Counted from the first letter of the stretch, positions 6,800 to 63,307 are shown. The stretch is DNA of 64,000 nucleotides from Candidatus Eiseniibacteriota bacterium (GCA_963728475.1 CAVSKL010000004.1:529103-593102), one strand, 5' to 3'. Program-made: numbers and translations. Notes: generated by a model not told the origin, from the sequence alone.

Positions 6800-8026
6800 T
6801 CAGGGTTCGAGCAAGCGCACCGCCTCCTCGACCGGTTCGCGCGTGAGGTACTCGGCGGGGTCGCCGCCGGCGAGCGCGCCGGCCGGGATCGCCAGCACCG
6901 GGCCCGCGTAGCCGGTGCGAAGGCTGCCGGCCCGGTCGGCCAGCCCGAGCGCGCGCGCGCCGCCCGCGGTCGCCATCTCGAGCACCGCGGCCGCGGGGAT
7001 CTCCGGGGCCGCCTTCCGGAGCGCCCGCATCTCCGCCCACACCGAGAGGTCGTGATTGGTCGCCCGGGAATCGGTGCCCAGGCACAGCGGCACCCCGGCG
7101 CGGTGAAGGGCGAGCGCGGGAGCGGGGGGAAGGCCCAGGTAGGCGTTGCTGCGCGGGCAGAGGCAGACCGAAGCCCCGCTCCCGGCCACTCGCGCGATCG
7201 CCCGGGCATCCAGGTGCACCGCGTGCACCAAGAGCGCCCGCCGGTCGAGCGCCGGTTCCAGCATCTCCACCGCTCCCGTTCCCGGGAGCGGGAACGATCC
7301 GTCCCATACCCCGAGCCCCTCCAGGTACGCGAGGAGCGGGCCGGCGCCGCGCTCCAGGAACGCGTCCTCGCCCGGCGGCTCGGCGAGATGGGTGGACCAG
7401 ACCCAGTGGTGTTCCCGGCTCGCCCGCGCGGTCTCGCCCCAGAATTCCGGCCACACCGAGTACGGCGCGTGGGGGGAGAGACCGGCTCGCGCCCCTCCGG
7501 CGGGCGGCGGGACCGCTTGATCGAACGCCGTGGCGGCGCGGAGCGCGGCGGCGAACCGCTCCCGCGCCCGCTCCGCGGTCACGCCCAGGAACTCGAAGAA
7601 CACCCGCGCGGCCAGGCCGGTCTCCTCGCGCAGGATCGCGGCCCCCTCGGGCCGGGTGGTGATCTCGCCCACCGCCGCCGTTCCCAGTCGACGGCACTCG
7701 GCGATCCCCTCGCGCACCGCGTCCCGGACCGAGGCTTCGGACAGCGACGCGGAGGCGCGGGCAACCTGCGCGAGCCCGTCGAAGAAACCGGCCCCTGGAG
7801 ACACCGTCCCCGCGAGCCCGGTGAGGGAGAGATGGGTGTGCGCGTTGACCAGGCCGGGAAGGAGGATCGTCGCGCCGAGGTCGCGGACCCCGGCCGCGGG
7901 CCGGCCGGCGAGAACGGAGGACGCGGGGCCGGCGGCGAACACGACGCCGCCGTCGGTCGCCACCGCCCCGTCCCGGACGGGAGGGCTCGAGATGGGGAGC
8001 ACCCAGCGCGCTCGATAGATCGTCAC
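6800..8026 (-). CDS. amidohydrolase-superfamily deaminase/chlorohydrolase-like protein (MtaD / aminofutalosine deaminase-like)
   Basis: GTG start. Metal-binding HxH in LLPGLVNAHTHLSLT, then HAVHLD, VCLCPRSNAYLG and LGTDS. 408 aa. Confidence 0.75.
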   Translation of the reverse strand: MTIYRARWVLPISSPPVRDGAVATDGGVVFAAGPASSVLAGRPAAGVRDLGATILLPGLVNAHTHLSLTGLAGTVSPGAGFFDGLAQVARASASLSEASVRDAVREGIAECRRLGTAAVGEITTRPEGAAILREETGLAARVFFEFLGVTAERARERFAAALRAATAFDQAVPPPAGGARAGLSPHAPYSVWPEFWGETARASREHHWVWSTHLAEPPGEDAFLERGAGPLLAYLEGLGVWDGSFPLPGTGAVEMLEPALDRRALLVHAVHLDARAIARVAGSGASVCLCPRSNAYLGLPPAPALALHRAGVPLCLGTDSRATNHDLSVWAEMRALRKAAPEIPAAAVLEMATAGGARALGLADRAGSLRTGYAGPVLAIPAGALAGGDPAEYLTREPVEEAVRLLEP

Positions 8027-16685: not shown

Positions 16686-18185
16686 TCAGCGGTCCAGCTT
16701 CACCATGCGGGCGACGGCGGTGGACCCTCCGGTGGTGACACGGGCGAAGTAGACCCCCGCCGGCGCCGGGGTTCCGGCGTCGTCCCGCCCGTCCCAGACC
16801 AGGGTGTGCCGCCCCGGGGTCTGGGCGGCCGCGGTCAGCACCCGCACCCGCCGCCCCGAGGCGTCGAACACCGCGAGCAGGATCGGCGTGTCGTCGGCCA
16901 CCGAGTAGTGGATCTCGGTGCGAACGCGGAAGGGGTTGGGGGCGGGCGCCACCCGCGCTCCCGGCCCCTCGCCCAACCCGCCGTCCGCGACGCCGGTCAC
17001 CACCAGCCCGTGCGGCCCCGCCCCTGAGGGGGTGTAGCCGTGGCACACGTCGCAGTTCCTCAGGGTGCCGGCATGACCCTGGAGCGCGGCGGCCTGGAGA
17101 TTGTCCCGCGCCTCCCGCGAGGGGAGGATGGCGTGGGGGCTGTTGTGACAGGTGGGGCAATAGAGGTTCCCGTGGCCTCTGGAGTTCCGGTAGAGGGTAT
17201 TGGCCTCCTCGGCGTGGGCGGTGCCGTGGCAATCGCCGCAGCGAGGTTCCTGGAGCCACGGCTGGCGGCCGTTCTTGATGGTCTCGGCCACGTCGCGCAC
17301 GCTCCCGTGGCAGTTCTGGCAGACCAGGCCGAAGTCGGTGGCCATGGTGCCGCGCAGGCACTGGGTGGTGGGACCCGGGTGACATTGGTAGCAGTTGTTG
17401 GTCTCCTCGGAGTGCTGGTCGTGCATGGCCTCGGAAAGGCTGGGGAGGTTCGGCATGCCGGGGGTTCCGAGAGCGTTGCTGGCGTGGCAGCTCGCGCACA
17501 GGACCGGCGTGGAAGTCGCGAGATGGGTGCCGTTCTCGTTGTCGTGAAGCCGGAGGATGGCGTGCTCCACCGTCTCGCCGGTACCGGGGTGGTGGCAGTT
17601 GGAGCACATCATCTCGTTCGAGATCGGCAGCACGATCCGGGTCTCGGCGATCTTCGCCGCCCCGTCGTAAGCCTCCAGGATCCCGAGCTGGAACGGGGCC
17701 GGGTTCACCAGGTCGTTGTCGGTGAAGGGGGTGAGGGGGATCCCGAAGGCGTCGAAGTGGTCGGACTTGGGATCGAGATTGCCGGAGAGACCCTTCCCGG
17801 CCAGGCCGACGTTGTCCGGAAGCGATGCCCCGAAGATCTGCGGGGCGTAGGTCCAGAAGTCGGTCTTTCCCACCGAGTACGTGTTGTTCTCAATCCGGTA
17901 GGTGACGGTATAGGGGTTCACCACGATCCCCGGCAAGGTGGACGCCGACCCGCGGAGGATGATCACGGCCCAGACGTTGTTGTACGGGGGAAGCACGGTC
18001 AAGTCCTGGAACCGGGCGTTCGCGCAGTGCATCCCGAGGTCGTTCCAGCCGATCACGATGTACGGTCCGAGGGCGGCCGGGGCGGCATCGTAGGGCGGGG
18101 GCGAGGCGAGGGCGGTGGGCACGGCGGTCAGGGCGAGGATCAGGACCAGCACGGCGAAAGCAGACCGACGGCGGATGGGAAGCAT
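16686..18185 (-). CDS. exported heptaheme c-type cytochrome with C-terminal FlgD-Ig/T9SS-like sorting domain
   Basis: ATG at 18185 (plus-strand cat 18183-18185) with a GGAGGA RBS upstream. Signal peptide MLPIRRRSAFAVLVLILALTAVPTALA. Seven CXXCH motifs: CSNCH, CASCH, CYQCH, CQNCH, CGDCH, CPTCH, CDVCH. C-terminal 88 aa: ...PNPFRVRTEIHY...VFDASGRRVRVL...GVYFARV...MVKLDR. Confidence 0.8.
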   Translation of the reverse strand: MLPIRRRSAFAVLVLILALTAVPTALASPPPYDAAPAALGPYIVIGWNDLGMHCANARFQDLTVLPPYNNVWAVIILRGSASTLPGIVVNPYTVTYRIENNTYSVGKTDFWTYAPQIFGASLPDNVGLAGKGLSGNLDPKSDHFDAFGIPLTPFTDNDLVNPAPFQLGILEAYDGAAKIAETRIVLPISNEMMCSNCHHPGTGETVEHAILRLHDNENGTHLATSTPVLCASCHASNALGTPGMPNLPSLSEAMHDQHSEETNNCYQCHPGPTTQCLRGTMATDFGLVCQNCHGSVRDVAETIKNGRQPWLQEPRCGDCHGTAHAEEANTLYRNSRGHGNLYCPTCHNSPHAILPSREARDNLQAAALQGHAGTLRNCDVCHGYTPSGAGPHGLVVTGVADGGLGEGPGARVAPAPNPFRVRTEIHYSVADDTPILLAVFDASGRRVRVLTAAAQTPGRHTLVWDGRDDAGTPAPAGVYFARVTTGGSTAVARMVKLDR

Positions 18186-18516
18186 GTTCTTTTCCTCCAC
18201 GGACCCGGTTTCGAGAACCGCCGAACCGGTTCCGGGGCCGGGGGCACGGGCCCTCCGCCGGAACCGGAAAGAGCGTGGCATCGTGTGTTCCCGAGGAATG
18301 GACGCCGGAGGAGAAAGGGATAGGCGGAGAATCCGGTCCCCGCCCCATGGGGTGCGCGGACCGGTAGCGGGAGGAACGGGGGCACCGTCTCACCGAATCT
18401 TCCCGGCCCGCGGACGATTCGTCAATGAGCGCGATCAAGAGGGCGATCCGTGTCAGGACCGGTCGACCGGTCCCCGGAGAGCGGCGCCGGCGCAAGCCGA
18501 ACGGCCGGCCTGGGGG

Positions 18517-19257
18517 CTAGTTCCCGCTCGAGTCCCGTTTCACCGCCCCGGCCTGGCGGACCAGGGTCTCGAGGACCGGGTACGGCTGCGCCCCCACCAC
18601 GAACCGGCCCCCGGCCTCGAAGGTGGGAACCGCGTTCACCCCCCGGCCGGTGGCCCGGGCCCAGTCCGCGTCGACCGCCCGGCTGAAGGTCCGCCGGTCG
18701 AGCACCCGGGCCGCTTCCTCGCGATCGAGTCCTACCGAGGAGGCCAGGTCGAGCAGCACCGCCCGGTTCCCGATGTTCCGCCCCTCGGCGAAGTAGGCGC
18801 GGAAGGCGGCGTCGTTGAACGCGGGGCCCTTCCCCTCGGACTCGGCCCACTTCCCCAGCTCCTGGGCCAAGCGGCTGTTGAAGGTGGAGTCGCGGTCGGC
18901 CATGGGGAGCCCCTCCTCCGCGGCCAGCGCCTTGAGCCGGGCCTGGGAGGCGGCGATCCGCCGCGCGGCCCCCGCCCCTCCCCCGAACAGCTCGGCGAGG
19001 CTTATCCCGTCTCCGGGCGTATCGGGGTGGAGCGGGAAGTGCACGTAATCCACGCGTACGTCGTATTCCTTCTGGAGTTTCTCAACACGGACCGTGCTGA
19101 GGTAGCACCAGGGTCAGACGTAGTCGCTGTAGACGACGAGAACGACGGGAGAGGCTCCCGCCTTGCCGGCGTGAGGTGACGACATGACGGCCCCGGTGGT
19201 GACGAGAAGGGCGGCGACGGCCGTGCCCAGGGCACGGCGCAGGGCGAACGAAGGCAT
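18517..19257 (-). CDS. DsbA/FrnE-like thiol:disulfide oxidoreductase, candidate selenoprotein (in-frame TGA = Sec at the first position of the CPWC motif)
   Basis: The track reports only 18517-19053. Reading the same frame upstream gives MPSFALRRALGTAVAALLVTTGAVMSSPHAGKAGASPVVLVVYSDYV-TGA-PWCYLSTVRVEKLQKEYDVRVDYVHFPLHPD.... The TGA is at plus coordinates 19114-19116. The ATG at 19257 follows AAAGGA and opens a signal-peptide-like segment; an alternative ATG is at 19185. SDYVxPWCY is the DSBA-family redox motif. Confidence 0.6.
19081..19101 (-). promoter_or_regulatory. SECIS-like hairpin 12 nt downstream of the in-frame UGA
   Basis: The mRNA reads CUCAGCACG-GUC-CGUGUUGAG: a 9-bp stem (one G-U pair) with a GUC apical loop. 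The loop G and U sit at positions 25-26 counted from the U of UGA. Confidence 0.5.
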
Positions 19258-19645
19258 GAGGTTCCTTTCACGCAGGCCGAACACGACCCGATCGGTCGAG
19301 TATGGCAGGACGCGGCCCCGGAGTCCATCCGCGGGTGCCCCGCCCCGCTCCGGCTCAATCGGACCCGGCCGTCCCCGCCCCGACCGGCTTGGTCCCGGAC
19401 GGCCGCGCCGCCGCCCGCCTGGGCGCCGCCCGCGCGAATCCGCCGTACTTCTTGAGTTCCTTCAGCCGGCACGCGGTAGAGATCCCGGGGGTGCGGCTGG
19501 GTGTTCATGGGCCCTCCTCGGGCCCGGCGGGCGGCGCCGGAAAGATGATCAATACGATACATTCTATTTCGTTGTGAAGAACCGATTTGCTATGAATGTT
19601 GAGTAGCACACCCCGGGGTAGGCGGCAAGGGGCGGGGAACGGCGA

Positions 19646-20578
19646 CTACCCGGTTTCGATCCGCTCCCCACCGGAGTAGACGTTGAACCGGTCGCCGCGG
19701 AGGAATCCGATCAGGGTGAGGCCGTGCTCGCGGGCCAGGTCCACCGCCAGCGTGGTGGGCGCCCCCACTGCGGCCAGGAACGGGATCCCGGCCAGGAGCG
19801 CCTTCTGCACCAGCTCGAAGCTGGCGCGACCGCTCACCAGGACGATCGTGCCGCTGAGGGGCAGGCGTGCTTCCAGGAACATCGCCCCCACCACCTTGTC
19901 CATGGCGTTGTGCCGCCCGACGTCCTCGCGGGAGAGAAGCAGCTCTCCGCCGGGTTCGAAGAGCGCGCTGGCGTGGAGGCCCCCGGTGCGGGCGAATCCC
20001 TCCTGGGCGCGGCGCGCCCGCCCGGGGAGCGCGCAGAGACGTTGCCGGTCCACCCGGAAGCCGCCCACCGGACGGGCCGGGCAGGCGGTGCGGACCAGAT
20101 CCAGCGAGGCCCGTCCGCAGATCCCGCAGCTCGAGGAGGTGTAGACGTTCCGGCTGAAGCGCCCGGGATCGAAGGACGCTCCCGGCCGGAGCCGCACGTT
20201 GATCACGTTGGCGCCCGGCGAATCCGGCCCCGCCGCGCAAGGCGCGATCGACTCCACCTGGGCGGGGTCGGTAAGCACGCCTTCCGAGACCAGGAACCCC
20301 GCGGCCAGCTCGCGGTCGTGGCCGGGGGTGCGCATGGTCACCGCCACCGAGTGGCGCCGTTCGCCTCCGGCCTCTTCGACCACCACCCGCACCTCCATCG
20401 GCTCCTCGGCGGCGACCGCTTCGGAGCGGGAGCGGGCGGCGGCTCCCTCCACCGCGATCGCCTCGCGAAGTCCGGAAACGGCGTCCCCGCCCGGGGTGCC
20501 CGGCGCCGGCGCCGGCGGCTCCACCGGCTCCGCGATCTCGGGAGGGTACGCGGGGCGGTCGGGGGAACGGTCAGCCAC
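19646..20578 (-). CDS. fdhD: formate dehydrogenase accessory sulfurtransferase FdhD
   Basis: 310 aa with motifs SSCGICGRASLD and EDVGRHNAMDKVVGA. The GTG start overlaps the stop of the upstream molybdoenzyme gene by 8 nt. Confidence 0.85.
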   Translation of the reverse strand: MADRSPDRPAYPPEIAEPVEPPAPAPGTPGGDAVSGLREAIAVEGAAARSRSEAVAAEEPMEVRVVVEEAGGERRHSVAVTMRTPGHDRELAAGFLVSEGVLTDPAQVESIAPCAAGPDSPGANVINVRLRPGASFDPGRFSRNVYTSSSCGICGRASLDLVRTACPARPVGGFRVDRQRLCALPGRARRAQEGFARTGGLHASALFEPGGELLLSREDVGRHNAMDKVVGAMFLEARLPLSGTIVLVSGRASFELVQKALLAGIPFLAAVGAPTTLAVDLAREHGLTLIGFLRGDRFNVYSGGERIETG

Positions 20579-22748
20579 GAGGGACCACCTCCACCGCGGC
20601 CTCGCGGTAGGCGGGAATGCCGCACACGGGGTCGGTGACCCCGCGCGGAACCAGGGTGTTGGCTTCCGGCCAGTGGAGGAGGGCGGTTCCGGGATGGAGC
20701 GGGCCGGGCCCTACCCGGAGGTCGAGGCTCCCGGTGGGGGAGCGGACGGTGACCGGGTCGCCCTCGGCCAGGCCCAGCCGGGCCATGTCCTCCGGAGCGA
20801 GGAGCACCTGGTCGCGGCCGATCCCGGCGAGCATGTCGCCCCCGTCGAAGACCATGCTGTTGAACTGCTTTCCCCGGCGGGTGAGGAGTCGGAAGTGTCC
20901 GGGCGGGGTCTCGCGCCGCGGCGGCTCGAGCGGGGTGAACCGCGCGCGGCCGTCGGGGAAGCCGAAGCGCCCATCGGCGCAGAGGCGCTCGCCGCCCCAC
21001 TGGAACTGGTCCCCCTTGGCGCGCAGGTGCTGGATGCCGTCGTAGAGCGGGACCACCCGGGCGATCTCCTCGCGGATGGCCGCGGTCGAGTCGAAGCGGA
21101 TGCGTCCGGCCTCGCCGGGTTTGACCCGCTCGGCCAGCTCGACCAGGACCCGCCACTCGTCCCTCGCCCCGGCCACCCGGGGTCCGGGGATCTCGGGGTT
21201 GTAGATGATGCGCCGCTCGGTGGAGGTTTCGGTGTTGCCGCCGGCCATCTCGTAGCGGGTGGTGGCGGGAAGCACCAGCACGGTGTCGGCGGGATCCACC
21301 ATCATCTGCGGGTTGAGGACGATGTCGTGGTGAACGCGGAGGGGGATCCGCTCCAGGGCCTCCCGCACGTAGGCGGGGTCGGGGAGGACCCCGAAGAGGT
21401 TGCTCCCCACGCACCAGAGCGCGTCCACCTCGCCCCGCCAGGCGGCGTCCACCGTCTCCGCCGCGAAGTGTCCCTTCCAGTCCGGCACCGGGAAGCCCCA
21501 CTTCGCGGCCAGCGCGGCCGCGCCCCCGGGCCCGGCGGGGGCGCCGCCGGGGAAGGTGTCGGGGACGCAGCCCATCTCCGCGCCCCCCTGGACCCCGGAG
21601 TGGCCGCGGATGGGCATGAGGCCCGACCCCGGCTTTCCCACCAGGCCCCGGGCGAGCGCGAGGTTCGCGATCGCCTTCACGTTCCGGACTCCGTGGGTGT
21701 GCATGGTGATCCCCATGGACCAGACGAAGACCGCGCTCCGGGCGGCGCCGACCATTCGCGCGAACTCGAGCATACTCTCCCGGCTCGCTCCGGAGGCGCG
21801 CTCCAGCTCCTCGAAGCTCTGCCCGGCCAGCGCCCGCTCCAGCTCGTCCCAGCCCGCGGTGTGGGCTTCCACGAACGCGCGGTCCACCCGCCCCTCGGCG
21901 ATCAGGTGCTTCAGGGTTCCGTTCAGGAACGCGATGTCGCCGCCCACCCGGAGGGTGAAAAAAGCGTCGGCGATCCGGGTCCCCAGGAGAGCGGAGTCCA
22001 CCGAGGAGGGCACCCAGTAGCGTTCCATCCCCGGCTCGCGGAAGGGGTTCACCACCGCCACCTTCGTCCCCGCCTTCTTGGCCAGGTGGAGGTACTTCAT
22101 CACCACCGGCTGGTTGTTGGCGGCGTCGCTTCCCAGGAACACCACCAGGTCGCTCCCGATCAGGTCGCGGTAGCTACAGGTGGTGGCCGCGAAACCCACC
22201 GACTCCTTGAGGCCGGTGGTGGAGGGGGAGTGGCAGATGCGGGCGGAGTTGTCCACGTGGTTGGTGCCGAGATACCGCGCCACCTTCTGAGCCGCGTAGT
22301 AGGTCTCGTTGGCGGTCCCGCGCGAGACCAGGTAGAAGGCCAGCCGCCGGGGGTCGATTCCGCGGATGCGGGAAACGGCAAGCTCCATGGCCTCGGGCCA
22401 GGGGAGCGGGCGGAACCCGGAATCGCCGCGCCGGCGAACGAGCGGAACCGGGATGCGGCCGAGCTTGCGCAGCTCCCGCTCGCTCATCGCGGCCAACGCC
22501 GAGGCGTCCGCGGCCACCGCCGGATCCAGGGCGGGCATGGTGTTCAGCCGGAGGAGGTTCAGGCGCACCCAGCAGAGGTGGACCTCGGGCATGGTCCAGT
22601 CGCGCATGCCGCTGGTGCCCAGCGCGCAACCGTCGCAGACCCCGTCCCGGAGGATGCGCCAGGCGTAGCCGGGCCGGTCCCGGTTGGCCCACAGGGCTCG
22701 GGCGATTTCGCGGTAGGGGCCGGTCCGGCGGGCCAGCGTCCGCTTCAC
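20571..22748 (-). CDS. FdhF/YdeP-family molybdopterin oxidoreductase (alpha subunit)
   Basis: Motifs DGVCDGCALG, ARICHSPSTTGLKES (Cys at the position of the Mo ligand) and RGHSGVQGG, plus a C-terminal molydopterin dinucleotide-binding domain. I place the start at GTG 22748 (GTGA overlap with the upstream stop) rather than track 22847. Confidence 0.85.
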   Translation of the reverse strand: MKRTLARRTGPYREIARALWANRDRPGYAWRILRDGVCDGCALGTSGMRDWTMPEVHLCWVRLNLLRLNTMPALDPAVAADASALAAMSERELRKLGRIPVPLVRRRGDSGFRPLPWPEAMELAVSRIRGIDPRRLAFYLVSRGTANETYYAAQKVARYLGTNHVDNSARICHSPSTTGLKESVGFAATTCSYRDLIGSDLVVFLGSDAANNQPVVMKYLHLAKKAGTKVAVVNPFREPGMERYWVPSSVDSALLGTRIADAFFTLRVGGDIAFLNGTLKHLIAEGRVDRAFVEAHTAGWDELERALAGQSFEELERASGASRESMLEFARMVGAARSAVFVWSMGITMHTHGVRNVKAIANLALARGLVGKPGSGLMPIRGHSGVQGGAEMGCVPDTFPGGAPAGPGGAAALAAKWGFPVPDWKGHFAAETVDAAWRGEVDALWCVGSNLFGVLPDPAYVREALERIPLRVHHDIVLNPQMMVDPADTVLVLPATTRYEMAGGNTETSTERRIIYNPEIPGPRVAGARDEWRVLVELAERVKPGEAGRIRFDSTAAIREEIARVVPLYDGIQHLRAKGDQFQWGGERLCADGRFGFPDGRARFTPLEPPRRETPPGHFRLLTRRGKQFNSMVFDGGDMLAGIGRDQVLLAPEDMARLGLAEGDPVTVRSPTGSLDLRVGPGPLHPGTALLHWPEANTLVPRGVTDPVCGIPAYREAAVEVVPRG

Positions 22749-23812
22749 TCGAAGCGGGTGAAGGTCACGTCCAGGTAGCGGCTCTGCTCGAGCGCCTTCT
22801 TCCACTGGACGAGAATGGGGCTCTGGTAGATCCCTTCCACCACGCATCCCCGCCCGGGCTGGAACTGGTCGCTCACCAGCAGGCTCACCTGGCGCTTCAT
22901 GCGCATGAGCCGGGCGGCGGGGAGCGCGAGGAACTTGTCCACCGCCCGCTCCAGGGCGGAGTCGGTCACCCCCAACGCGTCCATGATCGCGTTCAGGACC
23001 TGGACGAAGTCGTACTTGGCGTAGTTGAGGGTCTTGACCGGAACCGTCCTCGGATCGAGAAGCATGTTCCGCCCCCGCTCGGCCACGAACCGGAACGGGT
23101 TGCGCAGCACCTCGGCCAGATCGTGCCGCATGAGGAGCGTCTCGTACTCGTTGACGGTGAGCGCGGCGTGGCGCTCGTTGGGGGCCAGCGAGATGTCGAC
23201 CCGCCCCTTGGTGATGTCCAGGGTTTCGATGAGATGGCAGATCTGGGCGTAGAGCCCGAACCGCGGATCCTTGAGGTTGACCGAGTCGATCGGGTGGAGC
23301 GAGGTCGGCACCTCGATCCGGACCCGGTCCACCACCTCTTCGCGGTCGTATCCGATCACGGTGGTGCGGCGGGTGCGCTGGGTGTGCTCGTGGACCCCGT
23401 CGAGGTCGATGAAGTAGACCGGCGAGCTGGGGCGGTTGACGTAGGTCACGCAGCTCCGGAGGCCGGAGCCGATGAAGGTGAGGTGGCTGTCGCCGTTCCG
23501 GGGCTCGATCAGGCGCTGGGCGTCGGTGAGCTCGCTCCGAAGGTGGAGCTGGTCGTGCCGGTAGTCGGCGTCCGGAGGAAAGATCCGCTGGAACCCGCCT
23601 ACGAAGTTCTGGACGGTGTCGCGATCGTTGTTGAGGCGCGCGCAGAAGCTCTGCTCCAGGTACCCCGCGGTGGTGTGGTGGGAGCAGTAGACCGATTTGC
23701 GATAGCGGTTGAAGAAGTCCTCGACCTCGCCGGCCACGCGGCGGCCGACGTCGATGACGTCCAAGCGCGACCGCGGCCGAAGCTCGAGGGTAATCTCAGC
23801 AGGTGGCGACAT
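22745..23812 (-). CDS. tandem YjbQ/UPF0047-like domain protein
   Basis: Only the last 355 codons of track ORF 22745-24739 look coding; ATG at 23812. First domain: LDVIDVGRRV...VYCSHHTTAGYLEQ. Second domain: RHAALTVNEYE. It is translationally coupled to the molybdoenzyme gene. Confidence 0.6.
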   Translation of the reverse strand: MSPPAEITLELRPRSRLDVIDVGRRVAGEVEDFFNRYRKSVYCSHHTTAGYLEQSFCARLNNDRDTVQNFVGGFQRIFPPDADYRHDQLHLRSELTDAQRLIEPRNGDSHLTFIGSGLRSCVTYVNRPSSPVYFIDLDGVHEHTQRTRRTTVIGYDREEVVDRVRIEVPTSLHPIDSVNLKDPRFGLYAQICHLIETLDITKGRVDISLAPNERHAALTVNEYETLLMRHDLAEVLRNPFRFVAERGRNMLLDPRTVPVKTLNYAKYDFVQVLNAIMDALGVTDSALERAVDKFLALPAARLMRMKRQVSLLVSDQFQPGRGCVVEGIYQSPILVQWKKALEQSRYLDVTFTRFE

Positions 23813-24013
23813 GGGATATGGGGTCTCCGGGTAGAGAATTCTACCGGGATCGGCCCCCGCAGTCAACGTACGGGTAGGTAGCCGGTTACCGGAGGGCTTC
23901 CGGCGCCCGGCCGCCGGCGGGCCGGTGGAGAACCGGGCGAAGCTCTGGCACAATGGCCCCGCCCCCGGCGGTTCCGCCGGGGGGCGCCGGACGACCCGAG
24001 CCCGGGAGGACCC

Positions 24014-58294: not shown

Positions 58295-58600
58295 GTCGTG
58301 GTTTCTCCTGCCCGGGGGATCGTCCCGATCCGCCCCGGAATTGCGGGCCAGAATCGTAGCATCCGCGCCGGCTTCCGGTCAAAAGCGCCGGAGACGCTTT
58401 GACGCGCGCAATCCATCCTGGTAGAATAATCTACTCGAATCGGCCGCCGGGATTCCCCGCCGCTCCGACCTCGCTTCCCGGCCCGTGCCGGCGGACGGGG
58501 GGGACCGGGTCCCCGGCATCCGCCTCCGGTCCCGGGTTCGGCCTCCGTTCACGCATCCAGGTCGCCTGCACGCTCAGCACAACTGCTAGGAGCCGCCCAT

Positions 58601-61600
58601 ATGCGCCCTTCCCCCAGGGTGATGGTGATCGGCCTTGTGGCCTCTATGGCACTCGCCGCGACGCCCCGGACGCCGCGGGCAGGGTTCGAGACATCACGAC
58701 TTTCCCGCCGGTACGATCCCTCCCGGATCACCTTGACCTCCACCGCTGAAGGCTTTCATGCGAGGTGGCCCGGCCTCACCCCCCTCGCCGACCCCGGGCG
58801 GCCCGCCCTCCCGGTGGACCGGGTGACGGTGCGTCCCCCGGAGGGCATGCGGCTGGCCGCGGTTCACGCGGTGCTGGGGGACGTGCGGACCCTGTCCGCT
58901 CCCGGCGTTCCCGCGCGGTACGAGCCGGAAGGGAGCCCGGTCCCCGACGTTCCCACCGGCGCCGTGTTTCCCGCCGAGGCGGCGGAACTCGCCGGCGGGG
59001 GCTATCTCCGCGGCCGCCGGCTGGACACGGTGGAGATCCATCCCCTCCGCTGGCGGAACGGAGTCCTGGAAGCGGCGGCAGAGGTGGAACTGGAACTCAC
59101 CTACGAGGCCGACACCGATCCCGGCCGGCTTCGCCCCCGCCCGGGAACCTGGGAATCCCGCGACCCCTTCGAGGCCGCCGCCCGCGAGGCGGCCGTCAAC
59201 GGCGGCGCTCCGGACTTCCCCCGCCTCCGGCCGCTGGTGAACGGCGCCGAGCCGTTCTCGCCCCGGTTCCTCCCCTCGGACGACGGTTCGCCCGTCCGCT
59301 ACCTCATCATCACCACCGACGAACTCGCCCCCGATTTCCAGGTTCTGGCCGACTGGAAGACCGCGTTGGGATCGCCGGCGGTGGTGCGGACTCTGTCGTG
59401 GATCTACGCCAACTATCCGCGCGGGGTGGACCACGCCGAGGACCTGCGCAACTTCATCCGTGAGGCGGTGCAGCACTGGGGGGTGGAGTACGTGCTGCTG
59501 GGCGGCGACACCGAGGTCCTGCCGTTCCGCTACGGCAAGTCGTATTTCCACGGCGGTGAGTTCATCCCCACCGACCTCTACTTCATGTGCCTGGACGGGA
59601 CCTGGAACTCCAACGGCAACGATCTCTTCGGCGAGGGCTACCTCAATTCCTCCATTCCCGGCGACGGGGCCGACCTCTATCCGGACGTCTGGCTGGGACG
59701 GGCGCCGGTTCGCAATCCCTCCGAGGCCTCGGTCTTCGTGCGCAAGGTCAAGGATTACGAGACCCAGGCCCCGCTCGGCCCGAACTTCGGCGAGACCAAC
59801 CTGGTCCTGGGCGAGGTCTTCTTTCCCCAGAACTGGAGCGCGGGGGACACCGTGATCTTCGACGGAGCCTGGGTGGCCGAGACCGGCATCAGCCACATGG
59901 CCGGAGTCTCCGAGTACAAGATGTACGAGAACTACACCGCGTATCCGGGAGCGAGTCCCGAGTACAAGACCCAGGTGATCTCGCGAATCAACTCGGGCTA
60001 CAACCTCATCCTCCACGTGGGCCACGGCTACCGGAACACCATGTCCCTGGGGATCGACAGCGGCACCCTCGACAACTCCGACGCCGACCAGTTCGTGAAC
60101 GGCGTCCGCGCGGGCATGATCTACGCCATCAACTGCACGTCGTCGTCGTTCGACTTCGACTGCATCGCGGAGCATCTCCTTCGCAACCCCGACGGGGGGG
60201 TGGTGGCCTCCGAGGGCTCCAGCCGGCTCGACTTTCCCGCCACCGGTTGGGACTACCAGGACGAGTTCTTTCACCAGGTCTACGAGGCCGGGGTCACGCG
60301 GATGGGCCAGGCGGTGGCGCTGCAGAAGCTCCCGTTCATCCCGAACTCGGGCAAGGACAGCGAGCATCGCTGGACCCAGTTCAGCCTGAACTACATGGGC
60401 GACCCGGACCTGGATCTCTACACCGGTCCGGTGGACACGCTCCACTACGTGCTCAACCCGCCGCTCGAGCTGGGGGTCTCCTCCTACACCGTGACCGTGA
60501 CCGATTCGCAGGGGCCGGTGGCGGGGGCCACCGTCTGCCTGAACAAGGCGGGCGACTCCTACGGGACCGCGCTGACCGACGTCTCCGGGATCGCGGCGGT
60601 GGACTTCCGGCCCGATCTCCCGGGGACGGCCAGCCTGGGCCTTCGCGCCCACGATCACCGGTCGCGGGTGGACTCGCTGGGGGTGGCGGCGCCGGCCGGC
60701 CCGCACCTCTTCGCGGACAGCCTGGCGGTGGACGACGCCGCCGGCGGCGACGGCGACGGGGAACTGGCCGCGGGCGAGACGGCCTACCTCTATCCCCGGA
60801 TCTCCAACCAGGGCTCGACCGCGGTCACCGGGGTCACCGTCACCGTGACCGGCGCTCCGGCGGGAGTCACCGTGCTCGATTCCACCGCCTCCTGCGGGCC
60901 GGTGGCGCCCGGGGCCTCGGTCCCCTGCGCCGACCCGATCCGGATCGCCCTCGACAGCTCTCTCCCCGACGAGAGCGCGCTCGGGTTTACCCTTCACCTC
61001 ACCGCCGGCGCCTACGCGGTGGACGATCCGCTGGTGCTCTACTCGGGGGCGCCGGGACTCAAGATCGCGGCGACCGCGGTGCGGGACACGGTGGGGAACG
61101 GGAACGGCAACGGGACCATCGAGGCCAACGAGGACCAGCACCTCCGGGTCTACGTGCGGAATCTGGGCCTGGGGGCGTCCATCGGGCTGACCGGAGCGCT
61201 CACCAGCTCCGACCCCGCGGTCCAGGTGACCGACGGCGCCTCGGGCTACGGCGACGTGGAGCCGGACTCCACCTCCGGCGGCGACGGCTTCGGGTTCCGG
61301 TTCACGGACTCCAGCCTCGCCCACACTTTCCAGTTCACCCTCTCCGACCAGCGGGGAACGGTGCTGAGCCGGGTGCTCGACCTGGTGGCGCCGGGGGCGC
61401 CCACCGGGCTCACCGCCCAGGGGGGAGCCACCGACGTCCAGCTTCGGTGGACCCCGGTAACCGGGGCCGATCTGAGCGGCTACAACGTCTACCGGGGGGC
61501 GGCCCCGGCCGGGCCGTTCGTCCGGGTGAACGCCGTCCCCACCGGAAAGGTCTCCTACTACCGGGACGAAGACCTGGCCCAGCTCACCCGCTACTACTAC

Positions 61601-63307
61601 AAGGTCGCGGCGGTCGATTCCTCGGGGAATGAGAGCGGGCTCTCGGGGGTGGCCCAGGCCTCCACCAGCCTTCCCCCCGAGCCGGGTTTCCCCATGGCTC
61701 TGGCTCAGAGCACTTCCTCCTCCCCATGCCTGGCCTACATCGACGGGGACAAGAAGGCGGAGGTGGTCACCGGATCCAACGAGATCTACGTGGCCAAGGC
61801 GAACGGCGAGGAGCTCCTGGACGGGGATGAGGACAGCCGCACTTACGGGGTGTTTTCCAGAACCGGGGTCGGCCCCTACTGGGCGCCGCCCTCGGTGGCG
61901 GACATCGACCGGGACGGCGTCCCCGAGATCGTCGCCGCCGGCTTCTCCAGCGGACTCCTCTACGTGTGGAGCGCGCACGGCGGGGTGAAGCCGGGCTGGC
62001 CGCAGGCGCTCAACCTCGACAACAGCTCCTCGCCGGCGGTGTGGGGGGCGGCGGCGCTGGCCGACGTGGACGGCGACGGCAAGCTGGAGATCTTCGTCAA
62101 CGCCGGCCGCTACACCATGGCCTTCCACTCCGATGGGACGGAGCTGGTGGACGGGGACCGCGACCCCTCGACGAAGGGGGTGTTCCTGGTCATGAACGCC
62201 TCCGCCAACTACAGCACGCCGGCGGTCTCGGACCTGGACGGGGACGGCGAACCCGAGATCGTGGTCGCCTCCCGTGACGGAAAGATCTACGTGGCCCACG
62301 CGGACGGCAACGAGCTGCCGGGATTCCCCTACAACACCAACGGCGACATGACCGGATCCCCGGCCATCGGCGACCTGGACCGGGACGGTCTCAAGGAGAT
62401 CGTGGTCGGAACCGGGGCGCTCCAGGTGCAGGCCCTGAACATGAACGGCGTGCAGCCTCCCGGGTGGCCGCAGGCGGCCAACATGAACCAGGACTACGAC
62501 GCCTCCCCCGCGCTCGCCGACATGGACGGGGACGGGTTCCTGGACGTGATTCTGTGCGCCGGGAACGGCACCGTCTACATGTGGCACGGACAGAACGGGC
62601 AGCTCTTCCCCGGCTGGGGTTTCGTCATCCACGACGCCTCCGGGGCCAAGGTGCCGCTCACCAGCTCTCCCGCGATCGGAAACCTGGATGGGGATCCCGG
62701 CCTGGAGGTCTGCTTCGGAGGGAGCGACGGCAACGTGTACGGCTACAACGTCGACGCCACCCCGGTGGACGGGTTCCCCATCGGGACCGCCAACGGGATC
62801 GACGGCGGCCCGCTCCTCTGGGACATCGACGACGACGGCACCACCGAGGTGGTGGTGCATAGCCTCGACCAGAACCTCTACGCCTGGCGGTCTCCGGGGG
62901 CCTTCGATCCCGCCAATCAGCCCTGGCCCATGTTCCATCACGACTCCCGCCGGAGCGGCGCGATCGAGGTGCCGGCCTGGGAGGTCACCGGCGCCCCTCC
63001 GGGCGGGGTGGGCGCCACCCAGCTGGTGCTGACCCCGGTCTTCCCCAACCCGGCTTCCTCGCGGTCCACGGTGGCCTTCCGCATTCCCGAGAACGCGACG
63101 GCGGGGGAGGACGTGGATCTCACCCTGTTCGATGCCTCGGGGCGGCGGGTGCGCACCCTGGCCCGGGGCCGCTATCTACCCGGCGCCCACGAGGCGACCT
63201 GGGACGGGACCGGCGCCGACGGCCGCCGGGCGGCGGCGGGGGTCTACTTCTTCCGGCTGAAGGCGGGCAAGGAGCGGCTCACCCGGAAGCTGGTCCTCAT
63301 CCCCTGA
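58601..63307 (+). CDS. giant exported gingipain-like (peptidase C25) protein with FN3 domain, FG-GAP/VCBS repeat propeller and C-terminal FlgD-Ig/T9SS-like sorting domain
   Basis: 1568 aa with a signal peptide. C25 core: YLIITTDELAPDFQVLADWK...YVLLGGDTEVLPFRY...LYFMCLDGTWNSNGN, a catalytic-His context ILHVGHGY and a catalytic-Cys context IYAINCTSSSFD. FN3 segment APTGLTAQGG...YNVYRG...YYYKVAAVDSSGNES. At least seven D.DGDG..E FG-GAP motifs. C-terminal domain (about 63023-63307): ...FPNPASSRSTVAF...LFDASGRRVRTL...GVYFFRL...LVLIP. Confidence 0.85.
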   Translation: MRPSPRVMVIGLVASMALAATPRTPRAGFETSRLSRRYDPSRITLTSTAEGFHARWPGLTPLADPGRPALPVDRVTVRPPEGMRLAAVHAVLGDVRTLSAPGVPARYEPEGSPVPDVPTGAVFPAEAAELAGGGYLRGRRLDTVEIHPLRWRNGVLEAAAEVELELTYEADTDPGRLRPRPGTWESRDPFEAAAREAAVNGGAPDFPRLRPLVNGAEPFSPRFLPSDDGSPVRYLIITTDELAPDFQVLADWKTALGSPAVVRTLSWIYANYPRGVDHAEDLRNFIREAVQHWGVEYVLLGGDTEVLPFRYGKSYFHGGEFIPTDLYFMCLDGTWNSNGNDLFGEGYLNSSIPGDGADLYPDVWLGRAPVRNPSEASVFVRKVKDYETQAPLGPNFGETNLVLGEVFFPQNWSAGDTVIFDGAWVAETGISHMAGVSEYKMYENYTAYPGASPEYKTQVISRINSGYNLILHVGHGYRNTMSLGIDSGTLDNSDADQFVNGVRAGMIYAINCTSSSFDFDCIAEHLLRNPDGGVVASEGSSRLDFPATGWDYQDEFFHQVYEAGVTRMGQAVALQKLPFIPNSGKDSEHRWTQFSLNYMGDPDLDLYTGPVDTLHYVLNPPLELGVSSYTVTVTDSQGPVAGATVCLNKAGDSYGTALTDVSGIAAVDFRPDLPGTASLGLRAHDHRSRVDSLGVAAPAGPHLFADSLAVDDAAGGDGDGELAAGETAYLYPRISNQGSTAVTGVTVTVTGAPAGVTVLDSTASCGPVAPGASVPCADPIRIALDSSLPDESALGFTLHLTAGAYAVDDPLVLYSGAPGLKIAATAVRDTVGNGNGNGTIEANEDQHLRVYVRNLGLGASIGLTGALTSSDPAVQVTDGASGYGDVEPDSTSGGDGFGFRFTDSSLAHTFQFTLSDQRGTVLSRVLDLVAPGAPTGLTAQGGATDVQLRWTPVTGADLSGYNVYRGAAPAGPFVRVNAVPTGKVSYYRDEDLAQLTRYYYKVAAVDSSGNESGLSGVAQASTSLPPEPGFPMALAQSTSSSPCLAYIDGDKKAEVVTGSNEIYVAKANGEELLDGDEDSRTYGVFSRTGVGPYWAPPSVADIDRDGVPEIVAAGFSSGLLYVWSAHGGVKPGWPQALNLDNSSSPAVWGAAALADVDGDGKLEIFVNAGRYTMAFHSDGTELVDGDRDPSTKGVFLVMNASANYSTPAVSDLDGDGEPEIVVASRDGKIYVAHADGNELPGFPYNTNGDMTGSPAIGDLDRDGLKEIVVGTGALQVQALNMNGVQPPGWPQAANMNQDYDASPALADMDGDGFLDVILCAGNGTVYMWHGQNGQLFPGWGFVIHDASGAKVPLTSSPAIGNLDGDPGLEVCFGGSDGNVYGYNVDATPVDGFPIGTANGIDGGPLLWDIDDDGTTEVVVHSLDQNLYAWRSPGAFDPANQPWPMFHHDSRRSGAIEVPAWEVTGAPPGGVGATQLVLTPVFPNPASSRSTVAFRIPENATAGEDVDLTLFDASGRRVRTLARGRYLPGAHEATWDGTGADGRRAAAGVYFFRLKAGKERLTRKLVLIP

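Follow-up and report, generated by a model that had tools for sequence, protein, structure and literature searches.

An in-frame UGA at the redox motif of a split DsbA/FrnE-like gene: a probable selenocysteine codon in a mis-annotated member of a known selenoprotein family

A gene for a DsbA-like protein on the minus strand of the 64-kb stretch of DNA analysed here (the window, 71% G+C) contains one TGA, at the exact position of the nucleophilic cysteine (Cys) in the redox motif of its homologues. The question raised by this locus is whether the TGA ends translation or is read as selenocysteine (Sec), as a sequence-only reading of the window had proposed. Our analyses indicated that 18517-19257 (-) is, with high probability, a single intact gene whose product is a DsbA/FrnE-like thioredoxin-fold thiol-disulfide oxidoreductase with Sec as the attacking active-site residue (U-P-W-C). 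Sec insertion at codon 48 in the source organism itself, and likewise the export and the substrate of the enzyme, are matters that we infer from the sequence.

Reading frame and the UGA at the redox motif

Translation of the minus-strand frame 19257..18517 gave 246 sense codons and a TAG terminator, with a TGA at codon 48 as the sole internal stop, and this retranslation was identical to the protein in the sequence-only reading. The conceptual translation is MPSFALRRALGTAVAALLVTTGAVMSSPHAGKAGASPVVLVVYSDYV*PWCYLSTVRVEKLQ..., in which the asterisk marks the TGA, with the C-terminus ...VKRDSSGN. The TGA (19114-19116, plus-strand tca) occupies the first-Cys position of SDYV-C-PWCY. When Cys was put at codon 48, the Pfam family DSBA (PF01323) matched residues 40-231 at E=2.6e-36 over profile positions 2-188 of 191, so that the CxxC falls inside the match. 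The resolving Cys of UPWC, encoded by UGC at codon 51 (19105..19107), is the only Cys in the protein. Residues V210-P211-T212 (18622..18630) correspond to invariant columns across the family alignment; by analogy with other thioredoxin-fold proteins, they probably form the cis-Pro loop opposite the redox motif. The Shine-Dalgarno-like AAAGGA claimed for the gene was found by direct reading at 19263..19268, 5 nt before the ATG (19255-19257).

As had been stated before, the mechanical ORF list for the locus held just a 178-aa GTG-started fragment (18517..19053). Gene callers, which had been expected to miss the gene, return it as a 47-aa ORF (19114-19257) and the 178-aa ORF (18517-19053), both on the minus strand, a split of one gene. 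It is very unlikely that the fragment from the GTG at 19053 is the sole product, or that a near-cognate tRNA reads through the UGA with Trp or Cys and not Sec. That GTG start does exist, and the UGA here is followed by C, a context considered to terminate weakly in E. coli. However, the fragment has none of the redox motif and is also missing the fold's first beta-strand and first helix, and simple read-through leaves unexplained the conserved SelB-type hairpin and the adjacency of selABC in relatives that are described below.

The 47 codons 5' of the TGA had a GC3 of 0.83 in frame, versus 0.72 and 0.57 in the other frames, and this coding-type bias was absent from the intergenic DNA farther upstream of the selenoprotein gene. 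Within this stretch, the residues VVLVVYSDYV before the UGA aligned with homologues, and the U was placed opposite the first Cys of CxxC both in the Cys homologues and in the solved FrnE; these were the alignments by which the sequence-only reading had proposed that its claim be checked. Within the 388 nt of intergenic DNA 5' of the gene (19258-19645, -), an AT-rich island at approximately 19545-19600 (...CTACTCAACATTCATAGCAAATCGGTTCTTCACAACGAAATAGAATGTATCGTATTGATCATC...), unusual at 71% G+C, may be a promoter or regulatory region.

TGA terminates 22 of the 32 long ORFs in the window, which indicates the standard code without global reassignment, and any recoding must therefore be local. A crude scan of the window for further TGA-interrupted frames returned antisense frames and ordinary gene ends only, at thresholds that also missed the positive control. 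Any metagenome-assembled contig may contain an error of sequencing or assembly, but nothing specific points to one at the TGA. The same 741 nt, TGA included, were recovered in a separate Logan assembly (run ERR11718636), and orthologues from unrelated assemblies carry the same codon; we give this explanation a negligible probability.

A scan of one genome per species yielded 80 related loci, in which the codon at the first-Cys site was TGA in 70 and TGT or TGC in 10, and TAA or TAG in none. Counting the window, the 70 loci and two extra truncated copies in one genome (L039), 73 of 73 stop codons at this site were TGA. According to their record titles, the TGA-bearing loci came from Alpha-, Beta- and Gammaproteobacteria, Myxococcota, Thermodesulfobacteriota, Methylomirabilota (Rokubacteria), SAR324, Eisenbacteria, Verrucomicrobiia and Terriglobia. 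A scan of metagenomes, made with the Cys back-translation of DYVCPWC and hence biased toward Cys forms (75 Cys, 2 Sec), served as a control for Cys forms only and added the loci L088 and L089. A single base change turns TGC or TGT into TGA, and the gene could thus be an ordinary DsbA-like gene made a pseudogene by a nonsense mutation at the Cys codon. This is hardly credible in view of the same TGA in 70 of 80 loci across phyla and never TAA or TAG, the dedicated conserved hairpin 3' of the TGA, and a frame without other lesions. Together, the conservation of the TGA across loci, the identical Logan assembly and the standard code effectively exclude a pseudogene or a sequencing error.

The split of the gene recurs in its relatives. 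The nearest proteins in a collection of 5.8 billion sequences were almost all truncated, beginning M/VRIEKLEREY... right after the CxxC region, which is the usual footprint of gene callers halting at a Sec codon. In all the contigs examined (those of proteins P0002, P0045, P0117, P0091, P0099 and P0068), an in-frame ORF of 43-58 codons ending at TGA preceded the truncated protein, and the same gene was split in 9 of 9 relatives looked up in protein and contig collections. At locus L082, a relative with 72% identity and full synteny (molybdoenzyme, FdhD, split DsbA, multihaem cytochrome), the TGA, hairpin and signal peptide have all been kept.

An unusual arrangement was observed in L039, a metagenome-assembled genome of an uncultured alphaproteobacterium, in which the 5'-terminal ~100 nt of the Sec-dsbA-like gene are present three times between 7600 and 10100, with TGAs at 7709, 8954 and 10040. 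All three copies extend from the start codon past the UGA to the end of the SECIS loop, so as to include the 5' arm, and break after ...CAGTACCGTGCG; the third copy alone runs on into the full gene. The intervening units of 1.1-1.25 kb code for zinc-ribbon-like proteins, one of 252 aa and one of 244 aa. The pattern looks like serial insertion of small elements at the SECIS hairpin, with each element carrying its own copy of the 5' end of the gene.

The hairpin downstream of the UGA

The sequence-only reading had noted a SECIS-like hairpin after the UGA, and conservation and published criteria both supported a bacterial SECIS (bSECIS) hairpin at 19081..19101 (-). With the U of the UGA as nt 1, the structure spans nt 16-36 and begins 12 nt past the UGA, with the 5' arm CUCAGCACG (nt 16-24), the apical loop GUC (nt 25-27; 19090-19092, G25 being 19092) and the 3' arm CGUGUUGAG (nt 28-36). 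This is the minimum free energy (MFE) structure, at -12.5 kcal/mol in a 42-nt segment. The published bSECIS model has an apical loop of 3-9 nt, a stem of 4-16 bp, a G within the first two loop positions, a gap of 16-37 nt from UGA to loop and an MFE of -7.5 kcal/mol or lower, with a loop that is typically N1-G-[G/U]-N-N2 (PMC13188914). The window hairpin lies within each of these limits, with a loop of GUC (or GGUCC), an upper stem of 8-9 bp, a loop G in the context G-G-U-C-C, a gap of 21 nt and the MFE given above. Searches of Rfam with the whole window at gathering thresholds gave no match, and at E up to 10 around the UGA site only two implausible matches to eukaryotic families, with no family that fits the hairpin.

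The folding of the single sequence was by itself not significant against shuffled sequences (z=-1.41 for 76 nt, z=-1.86 for 42 nt), and the argument is therefore carried by the comparative data. Across 64 distinct Sec-form sequences the helix 16-23/29-36 was 92.4% paired, compared with 18-49% when the 3' arm was slid by 1-3 nt, and neither the observed pairing nor the covariation score was matched by any of 500 shuffles. The loop G25 was invariant in these 64 sequences. Pair 21-31, which couples the synonymous third position of a Ser codon to the first position of an Ile or Val codon, was U-A in 57 of them, C-G in 7 and broken in none, and pair 19-33 occurred as A-U, G-C, U-A, G-U and U-G. At locus L089, an apparently exported relative, the residues differ (YVGAGRIDKL), yet all 8 of 8 pairs remain in register via three G-C substitutions, and the loop is CGGGC. 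In the window gene itself, the 3'-arm codons CGU and GUU, each of which accounts for only 4.0% of the codons of its own amino acid in the window genes, sit exactly where U must pair with A22 and A19.

Cys-form homologues carry other residues after PWCY (LGDNRVKKL, LASARVARL) and were 54% paired in the register of the Sec hairpin. Some of them form hairpins nearby, so that a hairpin by itself is not fully diagnostic. Marine Rhodospirillales-type Cys forms have their own hairpin (ACCUGGG-CGACAAC-CCGGGU), shifted by ~2 nt, and LSTARIERL-type Cys forms retain 6 of the 8 pairs of the Sec-type hairpin. Cys-form hairpins, located 13-40 nt after the Cys codon, were seen in L010, L017, L080, L096, L102 and others. 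These hairpins may be fossil SECIS elements left by switches from Sec to Cys.

Sec machinery, export and genomic neighbourhood

No tRNA-Sec, nor any other tRNA, was found by ARAGORN within the 64-kb window, Pfam scans identified no SelA, SelB or SelD domain among the ~46 ORFs scanned, and tblastn of the SelA and SelB of relative L025 against the window gave no match. In some relatives of Burkholderiales type, the gene is physically linked to selA-selB-selC. ARAGORN identified a tRNA-SeC (anticodon tca) 5' of the gene in three relatives, at a distance of ~0.5 kb in L025 and L074 and of ~6 kb in L069, and the corresponding tRNA-SeC/sel regions are L025:6319-10621, L069:5-2967 and L074:68-163. 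In L025 the cluster lies directly upstream of the gene, in the order selA-selB-selC-dsbA(U); its SelA matched PF03841 at E=3e-157, and its SelB had GTP_EFTU together with the SelB winged-helix and beta-barrel domains. The same selA-selB pair lies upstream of the gene in L069.

These results bear on whether the window gene is a young relic, an ancestral selenoprotein gene stranded in a lineage that has lost its Sec machinery, in which translation would end at codon 48. Selenoprotein loss has been described as frequent in bacteria (PMC1794560), and the lack of sel genes and tRNA-Sec in the window is in keeping with such a loss, but 64 kb is a small sample and sel genes usually lie elsewhere in the genome. 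Moreover, the frame is intact, with coding GC3, both before and after the TGA, rare codons preserve a perfect hairpin, and the syntenic relative at L082 retains the TGA, hairpin and signal peptide. We consider a relic unlikely, and favor a working selenoprotein gene.

If the gene is a working one, the UGA at codon 48 would be recoded in translation. SelB-GTP-Sec-tRNA(Sec) would bind the hairpin at nt 16-36, with its G atop the loop, 12 nt downstream of the UGA, and SelB would compete with release factor 2 in bringing Sec to the ribosome. In the resulting protein, a selenenylsulfide/selenol-thiol redox couple (U48/C51) would lie opposite the conserved V-P-T loop, presumably with the usual thioredoxin-fold chemistry in which the selenolate attacks and C51 resolves. 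Based on its cleavable-looking signal peptide, the window copy would be exported and act on periplasmic or envelope thiols.

The signal peptide proposed for the extended ORF was supported by inspection by eye and by a hydrophobicity measure. Approximately residues 1-30 (19168..19257, -) resemble a signal peptide, with RR in the n-region, GTAVAALLVTTGAV as the hydrophobic core and small residues around SSPHA/GK; by the heuristic used, Kyte-Doolittle hydropathy in the 35-residue N-terminal extension peaked at 2.14 over 12 residues. The U is preceded by 40-58 residues in the window protein and nine relatives (L082, L083, L085, L001, L006, L089, L168, L170 and L172), and the extensions of the relatives have a positive start, a hydrophobic core and a small-residue site (SMA/A, AKA/R, ARA/D). 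The extension is conserved in character and not in sequence, as expected of signal peptides. Most family members begin 14 residues before the U (M-x-E-P-x-x-L-E-V-F-S-D-Y-V-U) and look cytoplasmic; the window copy and the nine relatives appear to be exported.

The next gene 3' in the window, as in L082, encodes a multihaem cytochrome of the c type, which has 7 CxxCH motifs and ends in a T9SS sorting domain (16686..18281, -). Upstream are a gene of the FdhD/NarQ family (19646-20578, -) and one for a molybdoenzyme of the FdhF/YdeP family (20571-22847, -), both syntenic in L082. The molybdoenzyme uses Cys and not Sec, as the sequence-only reading had it, with ICHSPS at residue 204. Upstream of the YdeP-like gene there is an ORF of ~355 aa (22848-23911, -) that had no Pfam or NCBIfam match; its position is conserved in L082. 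At 58430-63304 (+) the window encodes a 1625-aa C25-peptidase/FG-GAP protein, which, like the cytochrome at 16686-18281 (-), ends in a FlgD_ig/T9SS type A sorting domain. These two T9SS-sorted proteins suggest that the source is an FCB-group-like bacterium with type IX secretion and 71% G+C.

Multihaem neighbours were also present in L083 and L006, and none were present in L001, L089, L168, L170 or L172. A CxxCH ORF was found in 5 of the 6 exported-form loci first examined and in 0 of five further loci, and an ORF with at least two CxxCH motifs was nearby in 3 of 9 independent loci. The association of the exported forms with c-type cytochrome genes is thus only suggestive, a hint, as the five further loci have no CxxCH ORF. 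We speculate that the exported forms constitute a distinct subclade, with VYSDYV-U-PWCY and a signal peptide of 40-58 residues, that gives uncultured bacteria with a T9SS and many cytochromes a selenol-based thiol-disulfide oxidoreductase in the periplasm or envelope; this is a tentative proposal, to which we give somewhat less than an even chance. Ten TGA-bearing members and one Cys form with an N-terminal extension (P0003) were seen. If the proposal is correct, the subclade might have a part in maturing or repairing c-type cytochromes.

The practical value of these findings lies in gene calling, in which one 246-aa selenoenzyme is reported as two pieces, a 47-aa ORF and a 178-aa fragment that would be catalytically dead. 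The 64 aligned sequences of the family-specific SECIS could be the starting set for a covariance model by which such mis-split genes are rescued automatically. The gene would imply selenium use by a high-G+C uncultured bacterium and suggests an exported Sec-based oxidoreductase. Exported selenoproteins have precedent, as in the (seleno)lipoprotein family of NCBIfam and in the periplasmic formate dehydrogenases, which are known exported selenoproteins. The current understanding of Sec decoding is unchanged by the window gene.

Comparison with known selenoproteins and DsbA-superfamily proteins

The window hairpin resembles the SECIS of the E. coli fdhF type and the bSECISearch consensus in being a stem-loop in the coding sequence just 3' of the UGA, with a loop, G-G-U-C-C, that fits N1-G-[G|U]-N-N2. 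The SECIS of fdhF has a bulged U in its upper stem. The window hairpin differs in having no bulged U in that stem, and its primary sequence is unrelated.

The closest solved structures were those of FrnE of Deinococcus radiodurans (5CNW, 5CP1; E=7e-23) and SCO1869 (3GL5; E=4.5e-17). The match to 5CNW/5CP1 (E=7.2e-23) spans query residues 33-227 and aligns the CPWCY of FrnE onto UPWCY, and both FrnE and SCO1869 share an NxxLAxxL helical insert with the window protein. FrnE has Cys and not Sec and no signal peptide, whereas the window protein has a predicted Sec and a signal-peptide-like extension. FrnE also has a C-terminal tail that contains Cys; the window protein has no Cys besides C51. By sequence comparison, the window protein belongs to the FrnE type (COG2761) within the DsbA superfamily and has a putative U-x-x-C couple, and the match to FrnE fixes its predicted fold.

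Three other assignments were considered, and the window protein differs from each. Cytoplasmic proteins of the FrnE type are without a signal peptide, and the window protein has, by the heuristic measure, a 35-residue extension with a hydrophobic core. Classical periplasmic DsbA of the E. coli type has CPHC and depends on DsbB; the motif here is UPWC, the DsbA structures 4PWO and 4PWP matched only weakly (E~1e-5, residues 130-227), and no DsbB-type Pfam match was found among the window ORFs scanned. The Rcas_1661 thioredoxin-like (seleno)lipoprotein family (NF041057) is likewise an exported thioredoxin-like family with Sec forms and shows weak local similarity at the C-terminus, but the score was 49.8 bits against a cut-off of 190, with 70 residues aligned and no lipobox Cys, and the window protein does not belong to it. 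No NCBIfam model captured the window protein.

The DsbA-like selenoprotein family (COG2761, UxxC) was first described in 2005 by Zhang, Fomenko and Gladyshev from nine Sargasso Sea sequences with predicted SECIS elements (PMC1088965). It was later recorded in cultured Anaeromyxobacter, Desulfovibrio and Desulfotomaculum (PMC1794560), and a 2026 review lists a "DsbA-like protein form 1, PF01323, UxxC" (PMC13188914). The statement in the sequence-only reading that Sec-containing DsbA/FrnE-like proteins had been reported was thus right, as was its view that the gene is mis-annotated and does not found a wholly new family, since the family has been published since 2005. The window gene is a new, mis-annotated member of this DsbA-like UxxC selenoprotein family (COG2761/FrnE, PF01323). 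It shares with the family the DSBA domain, a predicted Sec as the first residue of UxxC and a bSECIS with a loop G directly downstream, and Cys-containing homologues of the family are widespread. Compared with most of the family members found here, the window copy adds the signal-peptide-like N-terminus of 40-58 residues that is common to at least nine relatives, and the exported subclade would be at most a minor variant of the known family.
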